From assembly GCA_017466495.1 (NCBI GenBank), contig JAFTUB010000122.1, forward strand, positions 1 through 39,345: a stretch of DNA of 39,345 nucleotides. Direction: 5' to 3'. Below, piece after piece: positions 3,929 to 27,199 of the stretch. The DNA is from Clostridia bacterium (lineage in GTDB: Bacteria; Bacillota; Clostridia; Oscillospirales; CAG-272). The position numbers and the translations under genes were made by a program. Within the stretch, counting starts at the first letter, position 1; the number at the start of each line of letters is the position of its first letter. The notes below the pieces were generated by a model, which worked only from the letters and a program-made list of their open reading frames with translations, made no database searches and was not told the origin of the DNA.

Positions 3929-4086
3929 GGCAGGCTCCTTTCGTGGGGATGTTGAGGCCATTATAGCATTCGCAAAAAACGCTGTCAAGGTGAGGAAACT
4001 GCGGGGATAGCCATTCTCCGAATTTGCGAAAATTGGGGTAGGCGAAATACCCAAAGAAGGAGGGACATTTTTGTGAAAAATGTGAA

Positions 4087-4115
4087 TTGCGAAATTTTGC
4101 CGCCTGCGGTATAAT
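4087..4115 (+). promoter_or_regulatory. Sigma-70-type promoter for the oxidoreductase/GAF operon
   Basis: TTGCGA (4087-4092), 17-nt spacer, TATAAT (4110-4115), about 38 nt upstream of the ATG at 4153. Confidence 0.6.
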
Positions 4116-4152
4116 GGAATTAACCATAATCCCACAGGAGGACGACAGCATA

Positions 4153-5469
4153 ATGGAAAAGAAATTGAAGATCGGTGTATTCGGCGGCGGACGGGGCAGA
4201 AGCCTGGTGCGTACCCTTTGGAATCACCCCCGGGCTGAACTGGTTGCGGTTTGCGAGGCATCCCCTGCTATGACCGAAAAGGTGAAGGCTGCGGCAGAAG
4301 AATACAATGGCAATATGCCCGCCTTCTATACGGATTTTGAAGAGTTTTTGAAGCATGACATGGATGCGGTTATCCTGGCGAACTACGCCCATGAGCACGC
4401 AACCTATGCCATTCGCTGCATGGAGGCGGGGCTCCATGTGCTGTCCGAGGTGCTGCCCATGGCCACCATCGGCCAGGGGGTTGCGCTGATCGAGGCGGTG
4501 GAACGGACGGGAATGGTTTACGCCTACGCCGAAAACTACTGCTACATGGCTAACTCCTTTGAGATGTGGCGGCGCATCCGTGCGGGTGAGCTGGGCAAGA
4601 TCACCTATGCCGAGGGCGAGTATGTGCATGACTGCACCAAGAATCTGCCCTCCATTTCCCGCGGCCGCCGTGATCACTGGCGTCTGCAGTCCCCCAGCGC
4701 ATTCTACTGCACCCACAGCGTAGGGCCCATGCTGGCCGCCATCGGCGAGCGCCCCGTGCGGGTTGTGGGTTTTGAGCTGCCCAACGACGGCCGCGGCGGT
4801 GAGCTGCCCTGTTTCCGCGGCAACGGTGCCATTGAGATGATCACTCTGGAGAGCGGCGCAGTCTGCCGCAGTCTCCACGGCTGGCTCCGTCGTCAGGGCG
4901 CGAACAACTACAACTATATGTTCTACGGCGAGAAGGGCATGATCGAGAACTCCCGCTTTGAGGACCGCTCCAACATCAGCTTCTACCGCGAGGGTGATGC
5001 TTATTGCAGCGGTGAGTGGGAAAAGTATGTATCCGAGCCCTTCATCGAGACCGATCTCTCCAGCGACACGGTACAGGGTACTGCCCACGGCGGCAGTGAC
5101 TACTATGCGCTGTATTTCTTCTTTGAGCGGATTCTCGGCAACAAGGAAGCCGAGGCCTGGAGCATTGATGTGTACCAGGCGGTGGAGATGGGTATGTGCG
5201 GTCTGCTGGCACACCGCTCCATCCTCAATGGCAATGCACCCCAGGAGATTCCCAATCTGCGGGATCCCGCCCAGCGTGATGCATGGCGCAACGACCACGA
5301 GACCACCTTCCCCGATGTGGAGGGGGGCCAGCTGGTGCCCATCACTTCCTTTGATTTCCCGAAGAAGCCCGATGAGGAGTTCTACGATCATCTGAAACGC
5401 CTCAACGCGGCCGGATTGCCCCTGACCTGCTATCCGCCCAGCTACGAGAAGCCCGAGCCGAAAGAATGA
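4153..5469 (+). CDS. Gfo/Idh/MocA family oxidoreductase
   Basis: N-terminal Rossmann motif KIGVFGGGRGRS. Start at 4153 (MEKKLKIG) follows AGGAGG. The length and C-terminal alpha/beta domain are typical of the family. Confidence 0.85.
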   Translation: MEKKLKIGVFGGGRGRSLVRTLWNHPRAELVAVCEASPAMTEKVKAAAEEYNGNMPAFYTDFEEFLKHDMDAVILANYAHEHATYAIRCMEAGLHVLSEVLPMATIGQGVALIEAVERTGMVYAYAENYCYMANSFEMWRRIRAGELGKITYAEGEYVHDCTKNLPSISRGRRDHWRLQSPSAFYCTHSVGPMLAAIGERPVRVVGFELPNDGRGGELPCFRGNGAIEMITLESGAVCRSLHGWLRRQGANNYNYMFYGEKGMIENSRFEDRSNISFYREGDAYCSGEWEKYVSEPFIETDLSSDTVQGTAHGGSDYYALYFFFERILGNKEAEAWSIDVYQAVEMGMCGLLAHRSILNGNAPQEIPNLRDPAQRDAWRNDHETTFPDVEGGQLVPITSFDFPKKPDEEFYDHLKRLNAAGLPLTCYPPSYEKPEPKE

Positions 5470-5942: not shown

Positions 5943-6422
5943 ATGATTCGTTTGGAAAAAATTGACGCGGAAAACGTATGGGACATCCTGGAGCTCAATG
6001 TGGCGGAGTCGCAGAAGAAGTATGTTGCGCCTAACAGCGATAGCATCATTGAGGCGTACACCACCCTCGGAACCGAATGCGCCGCATTCCCCTTCGGCGT
6101 GTTCGATGACGATAAGCCGGTTGGCTTTGTGATGGTGGGGTACAATCTTGCCGCGCTGTATGAAGCGCTTGATGTCACCGAAAACAACTATCTCATCTGG
6201 CGTCTGATGATCGATCAGAAGTATCAGAAGCACGGGTACGGCAGAGAGGCCGCCCGACTCGCCCTGGATTTCATCAAGACCTGGCCCTGCGGGAAAGCTG
6301 AATACTGCATTACCTCCTACCATGAGGAGAACGAGGCAGGCAAAAAGATGTACCGCTCTCTCGGCTTTGCGGAGACCGGCGAGATCCTGGAAGGCGAGTA
6401 TGTGATGACCTTGAAGCTGTAA
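5943..6422 (+). CDS. GNAT family N-acetyltransferase (diamine/spermidine acetyltransferase-like)
   Basis: GNAT core LMIDQKYQKHGYGREAARLALDFI. GGAGAG ribosome-binding site upstream of the ATG. Confidence 0.8.
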   Translation: MIRLEKIDAENVWDILELNVAESQKKYVAPNSDSIIEAYTTLGTECAAFPFGVFDDDKPVGFVMVGYNLAALYEALDVTENNYLIWRLMIDQKYQKHGYGREAARLALDFIKTWPCGKAEYCITSYHEENEAGKKMYRSLGFAETGEILEGEYVMTLKL

Positions 6423-13559: not shown

Positions 13560-14912
13560 TTGGGAAGATTATTCGGAACAGACGGTGTGCGCGGCATTGC
13601 CAACACTGAGCTGACCTGCGAGCGCGCCATGGCCATCGGCCGTGCGGCAGCAATGGTCTTCGCAGACGGATGCAGACGGCGTCCGATTGTGGCAGTGGGC
13701 AGTGATACCCGTATCTCCTCCGATATGCTGGGCTGTGCCGTGATGGCGGGCCTCTGCTCGGTGGGCGCGGATGTCATTGACCTGGGCGTGATCCCCACCC
13801 CTGCTGTGGCTTATCTGGTTGGTAAGTACAAGGCAGATGCGGGAATCATGATCTCGGCATCTCACAACCCTGCGGCGTACAACGGAATCAAGATCTTCAG
13901 CGGCGACGGCTACAAGCTGCCCGATGCCCTGGAGGAGCAGATCGAGACGCTGGTACTGGAGCGTGATGCGGAGTGGCCGACCCCTGTGGACAGCGGCGTG
14001 GGTAAGATCACCCGTGCGGCAAATGCGGCAAGCGATTACGCGGTGCACGTGCGCAGCTCGGTGCTGTATTCGCTGGACGGTTTGCACGTGGCCATTGACT
14101 GTGCCAACGGCGCATCCAGTGTGACGGCAAAGCAGATTTTTGAGGGCTTGGGTGCGGAGGTGGACATCCTCTTCGACAGCCCCAACGGCACCAACATCAA
14201 CGACGGCTGCGGCTCCACCCACATGGATAAGCTGGCAGACTACGTCAGAGAACACGGCCTGGATGCGGGAATTGCCTTTGACGGCGATGCTGACCGCTGC
14301 CTGGCAGTGGACGAGAAGGGCAACTTCATCGACGGTGACCAGATCATGGCCATCTGTGCGGCCGACCTCAACGAGCGCGGACGACTCTCCCGCAGGACGG
14401 TGGTGGGCACGGTGATGACCAACCTCGGCTTCCAGCGTTTCTGCGCGGACAACGGGATGCGCTTCTTAGCGACCCGTGTAGGTGACCGCTTCGTGCTGGA
14501 GGAAATGATTCTGGAGGATGCAACCTTCGGCGGCGAGCAGTCGGGACACATTATTTTCCGCGACTTTGCTACCACCGGTGACGGCCAGCTGACGGCTGCA
14601 CAGCTGCTTTCTCTCATGCGCCGCTGCGGCAAGCCTCTCTCTGAACTGGCATCTATCATGACCAAATACCCGCAGGTGATGCTCAACCTCACCGTGACTC
14701 CCGAAGGCAAGCTGCACTTCCATACCGACGCCCAGGTACGCGAAGCCATTGAGCGAGCCAAGTCTGCTCTGGGTGAGCGGGGACGCGTTGTGGTTCGTCC
14801 TTCCGGCACTGAGCCCTATCTCCGTGTTATGGTGGAAGGTGAGGACGAGGAAGAGATCGGCCGCATTGCAAACGAAGTCGCAGAGGTTATTCTTGCGCGG
14901 CTCGGAAGTTAA
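13560..14912 (+). CDS. glmM: Phosphoglucosamine mutase
   Basis: GRLFGTDGVRG N-terminus, active-site SASHNP, metal site FDGDADR, and GEQSGH. TTG start at 13560 is 8 nt after AAAGGAG and gives the canonical N-terminus. The ORF-track GTG at 13551 is less likely. Confidence 0.92.
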   Translation: MGRLFGTDGVRGIANTELTCERAMAIGRAAAMVFADGCRRRPIVAVGSDTRISSDMLGCAVMAGLCSVGADVIDLGVIPTPAVAYLVGKYKADAGIMISASHNPAAYNGIKIFSGDGYKLPDALEEQIETLVLERDAEWPTPVDSGVGKITRAANAASDYAVHVRSSVLYSLDGLHVAIDCANGASSVTAKQIFEGLGAEVDILFDSPNGTNINDGCGSTHMDKLADYVREHGLDAGIAFDGDADRCLAVDEKGNFIDGDQIMAICAADLNERGRLSRRTVVGTVMTNLGFQRFCADNGMRFLATRVGDRFVLEEMILEDATFGGEQSGHIIFRDFATTGDGQLTAAQLLSLMRRCGKPLSELASIMTKYPQVMLNLTVTPEGKLHFHTDAQVREAIERAKSALGERGRVVVRPSGTEPYLRVMVEGEDEEEIGRIANEVAEVILARLGS

Positions 14913-14913
14913 T

Positions 14914-15082
14914 TAAGCGCCAGAACTGCATCGCAGGGTGCAGTTGACGAGGTGGGAGATGAATCGAATTTTCGGCGGATATCTCCCCGGCAGAACCACC
15001 TGCCGAAGGCTGTCACAAATATACGGGTGACCGTAAAACAAAGGACAGTGCAAAGGGGACCTTCCCGCATGACGGGAAGCAA
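14914..15082 (+). ncRNA. glmS ribozyme: glmS ribozyme (GlcN6P-activated self-cleaving riboswitch)
   Basis: The canonical core A|GCGCCAGAACUG...CAGUUGACGAGG...AUCGAAUUUUCGGCGGAU...CCCGGC matches the Bacillus/Thermoanaerobacter ribozyme almost base for base. The predicted cleavage site is between A14916 and G14917. P4-like hairpin cttcccg/cgggaag at 15061-15079. Directly upstream of glmS. Confidence 0.9.
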
Positions 15083-24306: not shown

Positions 24307-24468
24307 GAGGGAGATCTCCTTACGTTTGTTTTTTGCGCAGGTTGTTTGGGGCATAGGTGCGATAGGGGTTTTCCACCATTATAATCTATTGTACGGCCCT
24401 TGTCAATCGGCAGAAGGGAGAAGTTTTGGGGGATTGAAAATATTTTTTTGTTTTTTTGAAAAATCCTC

Positions 24469-24497
24469 TTGCTTTTTCCTGCAGGATATGGTATAAT
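24469..24497 (+). promoter_or_regulatory. Promoter of tRNA-Trp
   Basis: TTGCTT (24469-24474), 17 nt, TGgTATAAT (extended -10, TATAAT at 24492-24497), 15 nt upstream of the tRNA 5' end. Confidence 0.65.
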
Positions 24498-24512: not shown

Positions 24513-24588
24513 AGGGGTATAGTTCAGTCGGTAGAACACCAGTCTCCAAAACTGGGTGTCGTGGGTTCAAATCCTCCTGCCCCTGCCA
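24513..24588 (+). tRNA. trnW: tRNA-Trp (anticodon CCA), CCA-encoded
   Basis: Cloverleaf by hand: acceptor AGGGGTA/TGCCCCT, D arm GTTC/GAAC, anticodon stem CCAGT/ACTGG with loop CTCCAAA, T loop TTCAAAT. The T stem GTGGG/CCTCC has one T-C mismatch. Close to Bacillus tRNA-Trp. Confidence 0.9.
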
Positions 24589-24590
24589 AG

Positions 24591-24624
24591 AAAAAAGCAG
24601 ATTGCGAAAGCAATCTGCTTTTTT
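24591..24624 (+). terminator. Intrinsic terminator after tRNA-Trp
   Basis: aaaaaagcagattgc GAAA gcaatctgctttttt, a GNRA-looped stem followed by T6. Confidence 0.85.
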
Positions 24625-24629
24625 CAACT

Positions 24630-24792
24630 AAATCCGCCGTTGGCGGAAGAAATCCACCTGCGGTGGATGAAATCGCTTCGCGATGAAATCCCGCTTCGCG
24701 GGGAGAGAGGACGGATTTAATTTCATCTGAAGCCGTAGGCTGAAGATTTCATCCGAGCTTGCTCGGATTTCATCGTGCGAAGCACGATTTCA
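24630..24792. repeat. Array of seven ATC...GAT-closed hairpins with GAA then TTC linkers (unclassified structured element)
   Basis: See the first finding. Stems: TCCGCC/GGCGGA, ATCCACC/GGTGGAT, ATCGC/GCGAT, CCCGC/GCGGG, ATCT-GA-AGCC/GGCT-GA-AGAT, ATCCGAGC/GCTCGGAT, ATCGTGC/GCACGAT. No credible ORF. Confidence 0.7.
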
Positions 24793-24821
24793 TTGAGTAT
24801 TTTGAGAATTTATGGTATAAT
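24793..24821 (+). promoter_or_regulatory. Promoter of the four-helix-bundle gene operon
   Basis: TTGAGT (24793-24798), 17 nt, TGgTATAAT (TATAAT at 24816-24821). Confidence 0.65.
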
Positions 24822-24841: not shown

Positions 24842-25186
24842 ATGGCAGAAAACAAGCTTGCAGATTTGTCAACCGAATTTGCGGTGAAGATTTTGAATTT
24901 GACCGACGGTATCAAAGGACATTATTCTTTAGCCAATCAACTTGAACGCAGCGGCACAAGTATAGGTGCAAACATCAGAGAGGCAAAGTATGCTCACAGC
25001 AAAGCAGATTTCATTGCCAAACTGCAAATATCTCTCAAAGAGTGTTATGAAACAGAGTACTGGATCGAGATTGCGCAAAGGGCAAATATCATTTCGGAAG
25101 AAAACGAAAAAAGCGTTTTGCACGATTGCGGATCTATCCGCAGAATGTTGATTGCTTCGATCAACACGGCGAAGGAGAATTTGTAA
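24842..25186 (+). CDS. Four-helix-bundle protein (TIGR02436 / 23S rRNA intervening-sequence protein / Avd-like family)
   Basis: The pattern LANQLERSGTSIGANIREAKYAHSKADFIAKLQISLKECYETEYWIEI is the hallmark of this family. ATG at 24842 follows AAAGAGGTG. Confidence 0.8.
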   Translation: MAENKLADLSTEFAVKILNLTDGIKGHYSLANQLERSGTSIGANIREAKYAHSKADFIAKLQISLKECYETEYWIEIAQRANIISEENEKSVLHDCGSIRRMLIASINTAKENL

Positions 25187-25703: not shown

Positions 25704-26120
25704 ATGAAGACAGAAAAATTCTCCATGAGGAACAAGAACGAATTCTTTGATCGGGCAGATGCTATGCATGACTGCTTCTTTACCGTCGCTTTGGAGGATC
25801 GCACGCTTGTGTTAGTGTATGACCGGCTGGAGCAATATTGCGGTCCCGCCCCCGATTCACCTTGGTTCGCGGGATTTCATCAACTGACGGTGCGGTATCA
25901 CGGCATTGATTATCTGGATCTGCGTTTGAAGTGCAAAAGAAAAGAGATGGATTTTGACAATACCGTGGCGCCTTTGGAGAACAGGGAATTGATCATGAAC
26001 AAGTATTCCGTCGATTCGTTCGGTGCGCTGACGCTGTATTTTGGGGATACGGTTGGCAAAAAGCTATGGGGCGGTACGATTGAGATTATGCCCGATGAGA
26101 TTGAATACATCTGGACGTGA
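25704..26120 (+). CDS. Hypothetical protein (138 aa)
   Basis: ATG at 25704 follows GAAGGAGA. AT-rich codon usage like its neighbours. No family recognised. Confidence 0.55.
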   Translation: MKTEKFSMRNKNEFFDRADAMHDCFFTVALEDRTLVLVYDRLEQYCGPAPDSPWFAGFHQLTVRYHGIDYLDLRLKCKRKEMDFDNTVAPLENRELIMNKYSVDSFGALTLYFGDTVGKKLWGGTIEIMPDEIEYIWT

Positions 26121-26142
26121 CGCGTTTATCCCGCCCATGGAA

Positions 26143-26174
26143 AAAAGCTTTTCGTTTCGGCGAAAAGCTTTTTT
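26143..26174 (+). terminator. Intrinsic terminator inside the islet
   Basis: aaaagcttttcg TTTCGG cgaaaagctttt followed by a T-run. Confidence 0.75.
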
Positions 26175-26987: not shown

Positions 26988-27199
26988 ATAAAGCCGTACT
27001 GTTTGTGTTGTCTCACTTATAAGTATAACACGAGTCCCAATTGCTTTTTGTGCTCCCGCTGTGATTTTCGTTTCACCAAAGCCTCCCTCCCGGAGGGAGC
27101 CGGGTGAATACAGCGTTCATCCGGGAACACATTGTCGAATTGGGACAAAATATCAATCGATCTGCCCGGTGGATGAGCCCCGGGCGGGAAGGAGAAAAT

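Follow-up and report, generated by a model that had tools for sequence, protein, structure and literature searches.

What is the ladder of seven short GC-rich hairpins that lies between a tRNA-Trp gene and a gene for a four-helix-bundle protein in the genome of a Clostridia bacterium (Oscillospirales, CAG-272; assembly GCA_017466495.1)? We analyzed contig JAFTUB010000122.1 from position 1 to 39,345 on the forward strand, a stretch referred to here as the window. An original prediction, made from the letters alone, had described the ladder and proposed three roles for it: a recombination or attachment structure, an iteron or operator array, or a processed RNA structure comparable to the stems around 23S rRNA intervening sequences. 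We find that the feature is real and well above chance. It is a single copy of a non-coding element, about 170 nt long, that is dispersed and oriented and whose tRNA-proximal half is Gut-1. Gut-1 is already known as an RNA family without a function; the larger composite form is new, and it has a precise address and a partner gene. Our preferred account, which we hold tentatively and with somewhat less than even confidence, is that the element would act as a folded single strand, most likely a sense RNA read by the four-helix-bundle protein, and that array and gene would form a selfish cassette moving among tRNA 3' flanks.

The composite begins at CAACTAAATCC and ends at GATTTCATTG, and it parses into the ladder that had been claimed, at 24625-24795 on the + strand (Table 1). 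Between these ends come four hairpins with (G)A(T/A)GAAATC joints, a purine-rich centre, and three hairpins with GATTTCATC joints. The stems take the form ATC...GAT, imperfectly in hairpins 1 and 4 (hp1 and hp4 of hp1 to hp7), with GAA linking the hairpins of the left half and TTC those of the right. Junction words are of the GATGAAATC type in the left half and of its reverse complement, GATTTCATC, in the right half, as had been noted. Allowing at most one mismatch, the 9-mer GATGAAATC occurs 24 times in the whole window where 10.4 are expected, a count that none of 100 shuffles reaches, and seven of the 24 matches fall in 24646-24794, namely three on the + strand and, after them, four on the - strand. 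Their spacing is irregular (20, 16, 37, 26, 21 and 20 bp). The terminator of tRNA-Trp is bidirectional in form and the array begins at the end of its T run. Both neighbors, and a good promoter at the far end of the element, had been described correctly. So had the lack of a constant CRISPR-like repeat: a CRISPR array was rejected because the constant word is just 7-9 nt long, the 'spacers' are hairpins and the array inverts half-way.

Searching Rfam, which had been proposed as a check, identified the left half as a member of Gut-1 (RF01706), with a score just over the gathering score, and left halves of sister copies score 50-77 bits with the same model. The right half, read on the - strand, scores 37.6 bits, under the gathering score, in an alignment that forces the first hairpin, and right halves of other copies score 33-42 bits. 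Gut-1 was reported in 2010 as an orphan motif from gut metagenomes only, with no assigned function and rated 'RNA: Y, cis-regulatory: n'; Rfam files it as Gene; sRNA (Weinberg et al. 2010, PMC2864571). In the published alignment with flanks, some seed loci already contain another array, whose junction words are the reverse complement, and one of these loci lies behind the 3' end of a tRNA and its terminator; the text remarks on neither the tRNA nor the additional array (PMC2864571). Like the left half here, Gut-1 consists of three tandem GC-rich hairpins with AU...(G/A)U stems and a GAA within a UGAAAU word. The difference is that here it is one half of a composite of 170 nt that also has a long-range closing helix, has assigned hosts, occupies a fixed site after tRNA or tmRNA terminators beside a partner gene, and comes in variants with unrelated junction words (GATGAAATC, ACATCATT). 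The original prediction had missed both the long-range helix and the Gut-1 membership of the left half.

When one genome per species was scanned exactly for three GATGAAATC words set apart by gaps the size of a hairpin, at least 120 matches came back. Among the matches listed, nearly all lie in metagenome-assembled genomes (MAGs) of gut Clostridia (Oscillospiraceae, Acutalibacteraceae, Faecousia, Christensenellaceae and related MAGs), from ruminants, horse and human. In several MAGs more than one contig matched, and single 8-kb chunks can hold 2-3 copies. From these loci we recovered 77 full copies of the composite, each about 175 nt. Similarity between them starts at the terminator T run (TTTTTCAACTAAATCC) and stops at GATTTCATT, and terminator stems and right flanks differ from locus to locus. 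One subfamily, C, starts with GCAGTCAAATCC and carries a 5' hairpin of its own as well as a right-hand terminator; single, non-inverted arrays occur as well, as do tandem and flanking copies. Different array subfamilies can coexist in one genome (loci L128 and L220), and near-identical strains carry arrays that are 100% identical. Common to all variants are left and right junction words that are reverse complements of each other and the presence of the closing helix, and across variants the junction words fit R-UGA-W-R-U on one strand. BLAST searches of phage and plasmid collections gave no match and IMG/VR held 2-3 true copies among 47 pattern hits, so we rejected a phage or plasmid vector; a looser scan of viral collections for TGAAAT...RTGAAAT...RTGAAAT was dropped as it returned mostly chance matches in AT-rich giant-virus contigs. 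Literature searches for hairpin arrays downstream of tRNA genes gave nothing.

The stems are under selection for structure, not for sequence. Folds of the array are far more stable than those of shuffled sequences on both strands and under both parameter sets, with z-scores of -5.2 (+ strand) and -5.4 (- strand) for RNA and -4.9 and -4.7 on the two strands for DNA, and the minimum-energy folds contain the long-range branched pairing that had been anticipated. Pair counts were made in an alignment of 67 copies (A2), from which the covariance model R1 was also built. In A2, 88.1% of the cells in hairpins and long-range helix are paired, compared with 77.6% after shuffling and some 35% once partners are slid. 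Double-change cells number 443 against 156 expected, with none of 500 shuffles reaching the observed count, and this bears out the claim that structure rather than sequence is conserved. Such changes affect 29 of 53 pairs, and every helix contains compensatory ones. The long-range helix, S/S', spans 11 bp and pairs the 5' flank and the 5' arm of hp1 with the centre of the element; it was chosen by RNAalifold, is 97% paired and has three pairs that covary strongly (GC42/AU23, CG36/UA27, CG39/UA15). The competing local hairpin, hp1, is 95.5% paired. Because S overlaps the 5' arm of hp1, the two pairings are mutually alternative, and because both are kept paired the tRNA-proximal half may either close into a multi-branch domain, with S/S' round hp2-hp4, or open into four tandem hairpins.

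The element also has a direction. Model R1 scores copies at 120-183 bits in the sense orientation and at 20-63 bits on the other strand, so this quasi-palindromic element has a definite polarity. Of 68 left halves, 60 fold better on the sense strand, as do 46 of 67 right halves, and G.U pairs in the left half number 48 on the sense strand versus 20. In the right half, the tandem GA/GA mismatch that had been pointed out in hp5 is conserved family-wide, occupying 130 cells on the sense strand and 4 on the other.

This direction is fixed relative to stable-RNA genes. Of the 77 copies, 36 start 28-43 nt past a same-strand tRNA gene, with 19 anticodons represented, and three more start past a tmRNA gene; the converse arrangement is not seen (39 to 0). 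The fixed orientation holds even at copies that have no four-helix-bundle gene, and among the other copies many come after a terminator preceded by a tRNA-like remnant that ends in CCA. Cross-tabulating array subfamily against anticodon showed no correlation, with one subfamily found behind at least 18 tRNA types, which rules out that the array is inherited with a particular tRNA. We also rejected a classical tRNA-integrated island of the tyrosine integrase type, given that the window contains no second copy of the tRNA-Trp 3' end and the flanks no integrase. In copies without a tRNA, the terminator comes after a conserved segment of the form AGTAGC.CCCG...ATCATC(G/A)CCAAGG...GTCTACCC (L151, ahead of its second array; L162; L235; L381 at 1400-1500), and this segment may be the 3' part of a structured RNA, for which Rfam gave no match.

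Linkage to the four-helix-bundle gene, the other neighbor to be checked, is very strong in both directions. At loci selected by the array, 19 of 19 PF05635 genes sit directly downstream of an array on the same strand. Conversely, among 64 metagenomic loci chosen by protein similarity alone (67-95% identity) and having enough upstream sequence, an inverted array lies directly upstream in 57, and 34 of the 53 with longer upstream sequence also have a same-strand tRNA gene 197-323 nt upstream. Protein clades match the type of junction word (GATGAAATC, GGTGAAATC or TGTGAAATA). A consensus promoter overlaps the array end at about half of the four-helix-bundle loci, and in about 25 loci the start codon lies 20-29 nt from the array, so that either the -35 is inside hp7 or the gene needs transcription through the array. 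A minus-strand promoter driving the right half was rejected: none lies near the array, and the only minus-strand match sits in the coding region (24986-24959). PF05635 is the family of Avd, the accessory protein of diversity-generating retroelements (DGRs) (PMC10053308), and open reading frames (ORFs) of this family are found inside the RNase III-processed stems of 23S rRNA intervening sequences (PMC4990558). A placement of PF05635/Avd in the HEPN superfamily was considered and dropped, as a survey of HEPN proteins names neither (PMC3710099) and papers citing both do not link them. Owing to the strength of the gene linkage, the processed-RNA role, akin to that of intervening sequences, is probably the one of the three proposed roles that comes closest to what the data favor.

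The array and its gene turn over. At the orthologous tRNA-Trp/ymdB site, the window has a GATGAAATC-type array and an intact four-helix-bundle gene. Ranked by YmdB identity to the window, its relatives show no array (L249, 88%), a GTGAAAT-type array with a remnant of the gene (L246, 81%), no array again (L379, 77%), and a ACATCATT/AATGATGT-type array with a gene remnant and a second, window-type copy (L381, 73%). In L249, an insertion sequence remnant of the IS3 family (rve; 3980-4900) lies by tRNA-Trp where the window has array and islet. The array of L381 (1960-2200, - strand) has ACATCATT junctions followed by AATGATGT and keeps the S/hp1/S' design. Since relatives have other junction words or no array at this site, the element turns over there. 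Point mutations altering all junction words in concert are hard to credit, and replacement explains the variants more simply. Internal deletions have repeatedly removed the gene from behind arrays that were kept (L246 and L381); what remains of the gene in L246 (4900-4980) and L381 (1885-1935, - strand) is its last ten or so codons (...INTAKE...) behind an intact promoter. Cassettes whose proteins are 80-90% identical to that of the window occur behind at least eight different tRNA genes. In L307 and L315, a tRNA-Gly(GCC)-terminator-array unit is followed by the four-helix-bundle gene and then by an identical tRNA-Gly(GCC)-terminator-array unit, and L315 has a third, tandem array as well.

To the right of the four-helix-bundle gene the DNA is low in GC, in the window and at most other loci with enough sequence. 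Such a right flank recurs in L151, L164, L167, L171, L172 and L198. The ORF immediately after the gene is different in every locus (86-176 aa), and an all-against-all BLAST of downstream ORFs found no recurrent cargo apart from the four-helix-bundle gene. Three of nine post-gene ORFs have family matches, namely a WapI-like immunity protein (PF24716), a DMP19-like protein (PF14300) and a minimal nucleotidyltransferase (PF01909). These family-matched ORFs lie at L171 7005-7419, L214 1154-1562 and L167 7741-8002, all three in tRNA-sense coordinates, that is, on the reverse complement of the stored locus. Such matches suggest that the cargo may consist of conflict- or immunity-type passenger genes. 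The 251-aa ORF of the window islet has a weak match to a PQQ/BamB-like beta-propeller.

Our favored account would work as follows. The single strand would fold into two domains, one closed by S/S' round hp2-hp4 in competition with hp1 and one of three open hairpins, hp5-hp7. Specific recognition sites would be provided by the constant junction words (R-UGA-W-R-U on one strand), and the stems would need only to pair. The folded strand would be RNA from the tRNA-sense strand, made by read-through of the tRNA terminator or as the leader of the four-helix-bundle gene, and the factor reading the junction words would be the four-helix-bundle protein itself. Array and gene together would then be a selfish cassette travelling among tRNA 3' flanks. 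Possible parallels are Avd acting on structured RNA in DGRs and PF05635 genes within the stems of 23S rRNA intervening sequences. The data themselves establish family membership, the covarying architecture, the fixed orientation, the linkage to tRNA genes and to the gene for the protein, and turnover at one orthologous site; that the strand is RNA and not single-stranded DNA, that the protein binds it and how the cassette moves are inferences.

Several observations weigh against this account. The main facts that a single-RNA model does not explain concern the loops. Their composition is mirrored, with UNC/UNNC loops in the left half and GNA/GNNA loops in the right, and in L381 the polarity is swapped relative to the window, with GNA/GNRA loops in the first half and UUC in the second. 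Both would fit a two-fold DNA symmetry, or action on opposite strands, at least as well as one RNA. The folds computed with DNA parameters are as significant as the RNA folds. A strong terminator separates the tRNA from the array, and where the gene promoter is downstream of the array, at about half of the loci, the array is outside that mRNA. In the genome sample, about three out of four arrays lack a four-helix-bundle gene next to them, and the match between protein clades and junction words could reflect simple co-inheritance. As to movement, no reverse transcriptase, integrase or transposase recurs in the flanks examined.

What we consider the main rival places the structure in DNA. Single-stranded hairpins or cruciforms would be recognized as attachment sites for cassette insertion behind terminators, perhaps in a retrohoming-like process with a reverse transcriptase in trans and an Avd-like accessory. 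Copies beginning exactly at the end of the terminator T run with stems that differ between loci, different variants at the same tRNA-Trp site in relatives, the direct repeats of tRNA, terminator and array around the gene in L307 and L315, and the DNA folds themselves (z about -4.8) all speak for it. It would also make sense of the strand-specific, mirrored loops of GNA/GNRA form, including the GCGAAGC type. Precedents exist: DGR target hairpins have been shown experimentally to need structure and not sequence in their stems, and group IIC introns target terminator stem-loops in single-stranded DNA (PMC3240598). Against these stand the missing recurrent enzyme, the lack of a target-site duplication or a tRNA-fragment repeat in the window, and the near-absence from mobile DNA (2-3 copies in IMG/VR, none in plasmid or phage records), and the G.U-type pairs and strict sense orientation are explained equally well or better by RNA. 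We judge the DNA model unlikely, though well short of negligible. The recombination or attachment role proposed originally may apply: the element marks the start of variable low-GC cargo in many loci and turns over at one and the same site. However, neither a recombinase nor tRNA-fragment repeats were found.

A broader version of the cassette idea, which we rate distinctly improbable as a whole, would have a mobile ribonucleoprotein or protein-single-stranded DNA system of a new kind homing behind tRNA and tmRNA terminators, with junction words as a co-evolving 'address' and with variable immunity-type genes brought along or captured. Gut-1 would be its non-coding arm, and PF05635 proteins would have a general role in the recognition of hairpin ladders next to stable-RNA genes; if true, that role would also account for their presence in 23S rRNA intervening sequences. 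The intervening sequences with S23p ORFs, for example in Coxiella, where the element has been described as selfish, share with our element a PF05635 gene attached to a stable-RNA gene and a self-complementary structure (PMC4990558). They differ in lying inside helix 45 and being excised by RNase III at one long stem (PMC4990558), whereas here the gene is outside the tRNA gene, past the terminator, often with its own promoter, and is accompanied by a ladder of short hairpins; we therefore rejected an intervening sequence as such. DGRs are alike in having an Avd-family protein, GC-rich hairpins of 7-10 bp with structure-dependent stems, and strand-specific GRNA-type loops (PMC3240598, PMC10053308). 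Here, however, there is neither a reverse transcriptase nor a template/variable repeat pair within about 6 kb, seven hairpins replace one, and the junction words are constant. A DGR was rejected, as the Avd-like gene stands alone among small ORFs that are family-less or of immunity type.

A passive selfish repeat sitting in safe post-terminator DNA, of the kind of miniature inverted-repeat transposable elements (MITEs), repetitive extragenic palindromes and bacterial interspersed mosaic elements (REP/BIME) or BOX, would serve gene and cargo as no more than a landing pad or a source of promoters, and its structure would be a by-product of how it spreads. REP/BIME, BOX and Correia elements are likewise multi-copy, intergenic near terminators, modular, hairpin-forming and strain-variable. 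The dispersed and tandem copies, several per MAG, the coexisting subfamilies of L128 and L220, and the variable presence at an orthologous site are what such a repeat would show, as are imperfect terminal inverted repeats, TCAACTAAATCC against the reverse complement TCAATGAAATCC. These ends, however, are alike only through the junction word, and no consistent target-site duplication occurs between copies or in the window, and no cognate transposase, whether a REP-associated tyrosine transposase (RAYT) or that of an insertion sequence, recurs in the flanks, which led us to reject a MITE or REP element defined by inverted termini with a duplication or transposase. Conservation across Clostridia families with compensatory changes in every helix, the strict tRNA orientation (39 to 0), a protein clade almost wholly dependent on the array (57 of 64 loci), and the lack of a transposase partner in the flanks examined also argue against a passive repeat. 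Unlike the known elements, this one has a fixed position and orientation to tRNA and tmRNA genes and a partner gene that is not a transposase, and its stems differ within a copy while the junction words stay constant. We regard the passive repeat as quite improbable. That the element might prove to be a generic dispersed repeat had been foreseen; it is indeed multi-copy and dispersed, but its copies are linked both to tRNA genes and to the gene for the four-helix-bundle protein.

A free-standing, trans-acting small RNA, such as a sponge showing single-stranded GAA/UGAAAU words to an RNA-binding protein, would agree with the Rfam class and the 2010 rating, and with subfamily C, whose own 5' hairpin and 3' terminator look like those of a small RNA gene. 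CsrB-type RNAs, which sequester a protein, have a similar repeated-word design. We nevertheless find this very unlikely, because no upstream promoter is conserved, most copies are preceded by a terminator only, and neither an inverted second half nor tight linkage to tRNA terminator and gene is expected of a trans-acting RNA.

It is less probable still, to the point of being remote, that the element is a bidirectional transcription insulator, a run of hairpins with a U-containing word (AUUUCAU) each way that would shield the tRNA and the downstream gene from each other. Mirror symmetry, with stable GNA/GNRA-loop hairpins followed by AUUUCAUC on the exit side both ways, would suit this role, as would the constant presence of a bidirectional terminator alongside. 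Yet in a simple terminator scan of the seven hairpins hp1 on the - strand was the single pass, U tracts being poor, and in the L381 variant the junctions, AACAUCAUU, lack a U run and the polarity is swapped. Invariant junction words, the S/S' helix and the tandem G.A are not terminator features either. An array of intrinsic terminators was rejected on the same scan and on the lack of U-rich junctions in L381.

A double-stranded operator or iteron array for a regulator of the four-helix-bundle promoter, the second of the roles proposed originally and the one that fails most clearly, has in its favor a repeated word in inverted sets and right-hand junction words just upstream of the -35, but is hardly credible given irregular spacing (16-37 bp rather than the supposed 20), spacers that are palindromic with compensatory changes and under selection for self-complementarity, most copies lacking an adjacent promoter of this kind, and an orientation fixed to the tRNA even without the gene.

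Type III toxin-antitoxin arrays like ToxI also place structured RNA repeat units upstream of a small protein gene with a terminator nearby. Here the units are not identical, the array inverts half-way, a promoter often lies between array and gene, and the protein is not a ToxN-like RNase; on the first and third of these points we rejected such an array.

With these data, Gut-1, which has been in Rfam since 2010 without host, context or function, gains hosts, a full architecture, an address and a partner. The partner family, Avd/PF05635, has a sole understood member, which works with structured nucleic acid in DGRs. Whether the protein binds the ladder, whether RNA or single-stranded DNA is involved, and whether junction words confer specificity are now testable questions. 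More widely, PF05635 genes may favor stable-RNA genes in general, in rRNA intervening sequences and in the tRNA flanks described here, and tRNA 3' flanks in abundant gut Clostridia appear to be small hot spots for variable, conflict-type genes.

Table 1. Features of the hairpin array and its surroundings in the window.
Feature	Position	Strand	Evidence and remarks
tRNA-Trp (CCA)	24513-24588	+	ARAGORN; Rfam tRNA 62.4 bits; upstream neighbor of array
tRNA-Trp intrinsic terminator	24590-24625		9-bp GC-rich stem, A run before, T run after; perfect 16-nt inverted repeat
Whole composite element	24625-24795	+	covariance model R1: 173 bits on +, 57 bits on -
Gut-1 motif proper (hp1-hp3, GAA joints)	24625-24694	+	RF01706, 50.2 bits, gathering score 50, E = 1.7e-8
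S, 5' strand of long-range helix	24629-24638	+	RNAalifold and pair counts, columns 6-16 with 102-112
hp1, TCCGCC-GTT-GGCGGA	24633-24647	+	sequence; covariation
hp2, ATCCACC-TGC-GGTGGAT	24652-24668	+	helix 2: 91% paired, 5 pairs changed both sides
hp3, ATCGC-TTC-GCGAT	24672-24684	+	helix 3: 92% paired
hp4, TCCCGC-TTC-GCGGGG, closing U.G pair	24689-24703	+	helix 4: 65% paired (one subfamily is misaligned there), 4 pairs with double changes
S', 3' strand of long-range helix (GACGGATTTA)	24710-24719	+	one C.A mismatch with S in window copy
hp5, ATCTGAAGCC-GTA-GGCTGAAGAT, tandem sheared-type G.A/A.G mismatch	24725-24747	+	sequence; family counts
hp6, ATCCGAGC-TT-GCTCGGAT	24751-24768	+	helix 6: 86% paired
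hp7, ATCGTGC-GAA-GCACGAT	24772-24788	+	helix 8: 98% paired, 4 pairs changed both sides
Promoter of four-helix-bundle gene, TTGAGT-17-TATAAT, TG before -10	24793-24821	+	-35 overlaps last bases of element
Four-helix-bundle gene (PF05635, 23S_rRNA_IVP; Avd-like)	24842-25186	+	Pfam E = 8e-26; closest solved structure PDB 2RLD, E = 1.4e-25
Low-GC variable cargo, ORFs of 154, 138 and 251 aa	25188-26987	+	GC 0.42-0.45 vs 0.55-0.63 in flanks; no confident Pfam family

Some resemblances to tRNA were seen in and around the arrays. The array start (CTAAATCC or GTCAAATCC) looks like a tRNA T-loop plus stem (TTCAAATCC), and the window contains the word AAATCC(T/A)C(T/C)TGC in three places, the tRNA promoter region (24461-24472), the T-arm/acceptor of tRNA-Trp (24569-24580) and hp2 (24650-24661). 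Subfamily-B arrays in L197, L136, L208, L210, L216, L217 and L232 are accompanied by a recurring box, GTGAGAGTTCGAATTCATACGCAAAA...TATCTTTTTTGTAGCCCATAGAC, that is about 60 nt long and whose core resembles a tRNA T-arm; the box of L197 is placed between an array and the terminator that follows, which makes tandem units of about 268 nt. Rfam returned no match for this box, nor for an X-box and a ATCATCGCCAAGG box found near some copies. The same MAGs hold other kinds of hairpin array (L133 at about 6050-6250, L129 at 1100-2500), one with hairpins joined by TCGATATG words beside a single Gut-1 array and another with dense repeats of the form GTCATTCYGAGCG...GGATC.

Further structured segments lie elsewhere in the window. 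A perfect 14-bp inverted repeat, AAAAAAGCTTTTCG / CGAAAAGCTTTTTT, preceded by an A run and followed by a T run (26141-26174), has the form of a bidirectional terminator behind an ORF that ends at 26120. At 27034-27146, a 25-nt imperfect inverted repeat (GTCCCAATTGC... / ...GAATTGGGAC) occupies the leader of a gene with a Cthe_2159 domain. A glmS ribozyme/riboswitch (RF00234, 91.7 bits) is found at 14905-15059 on the + strand, upstream of glmS.

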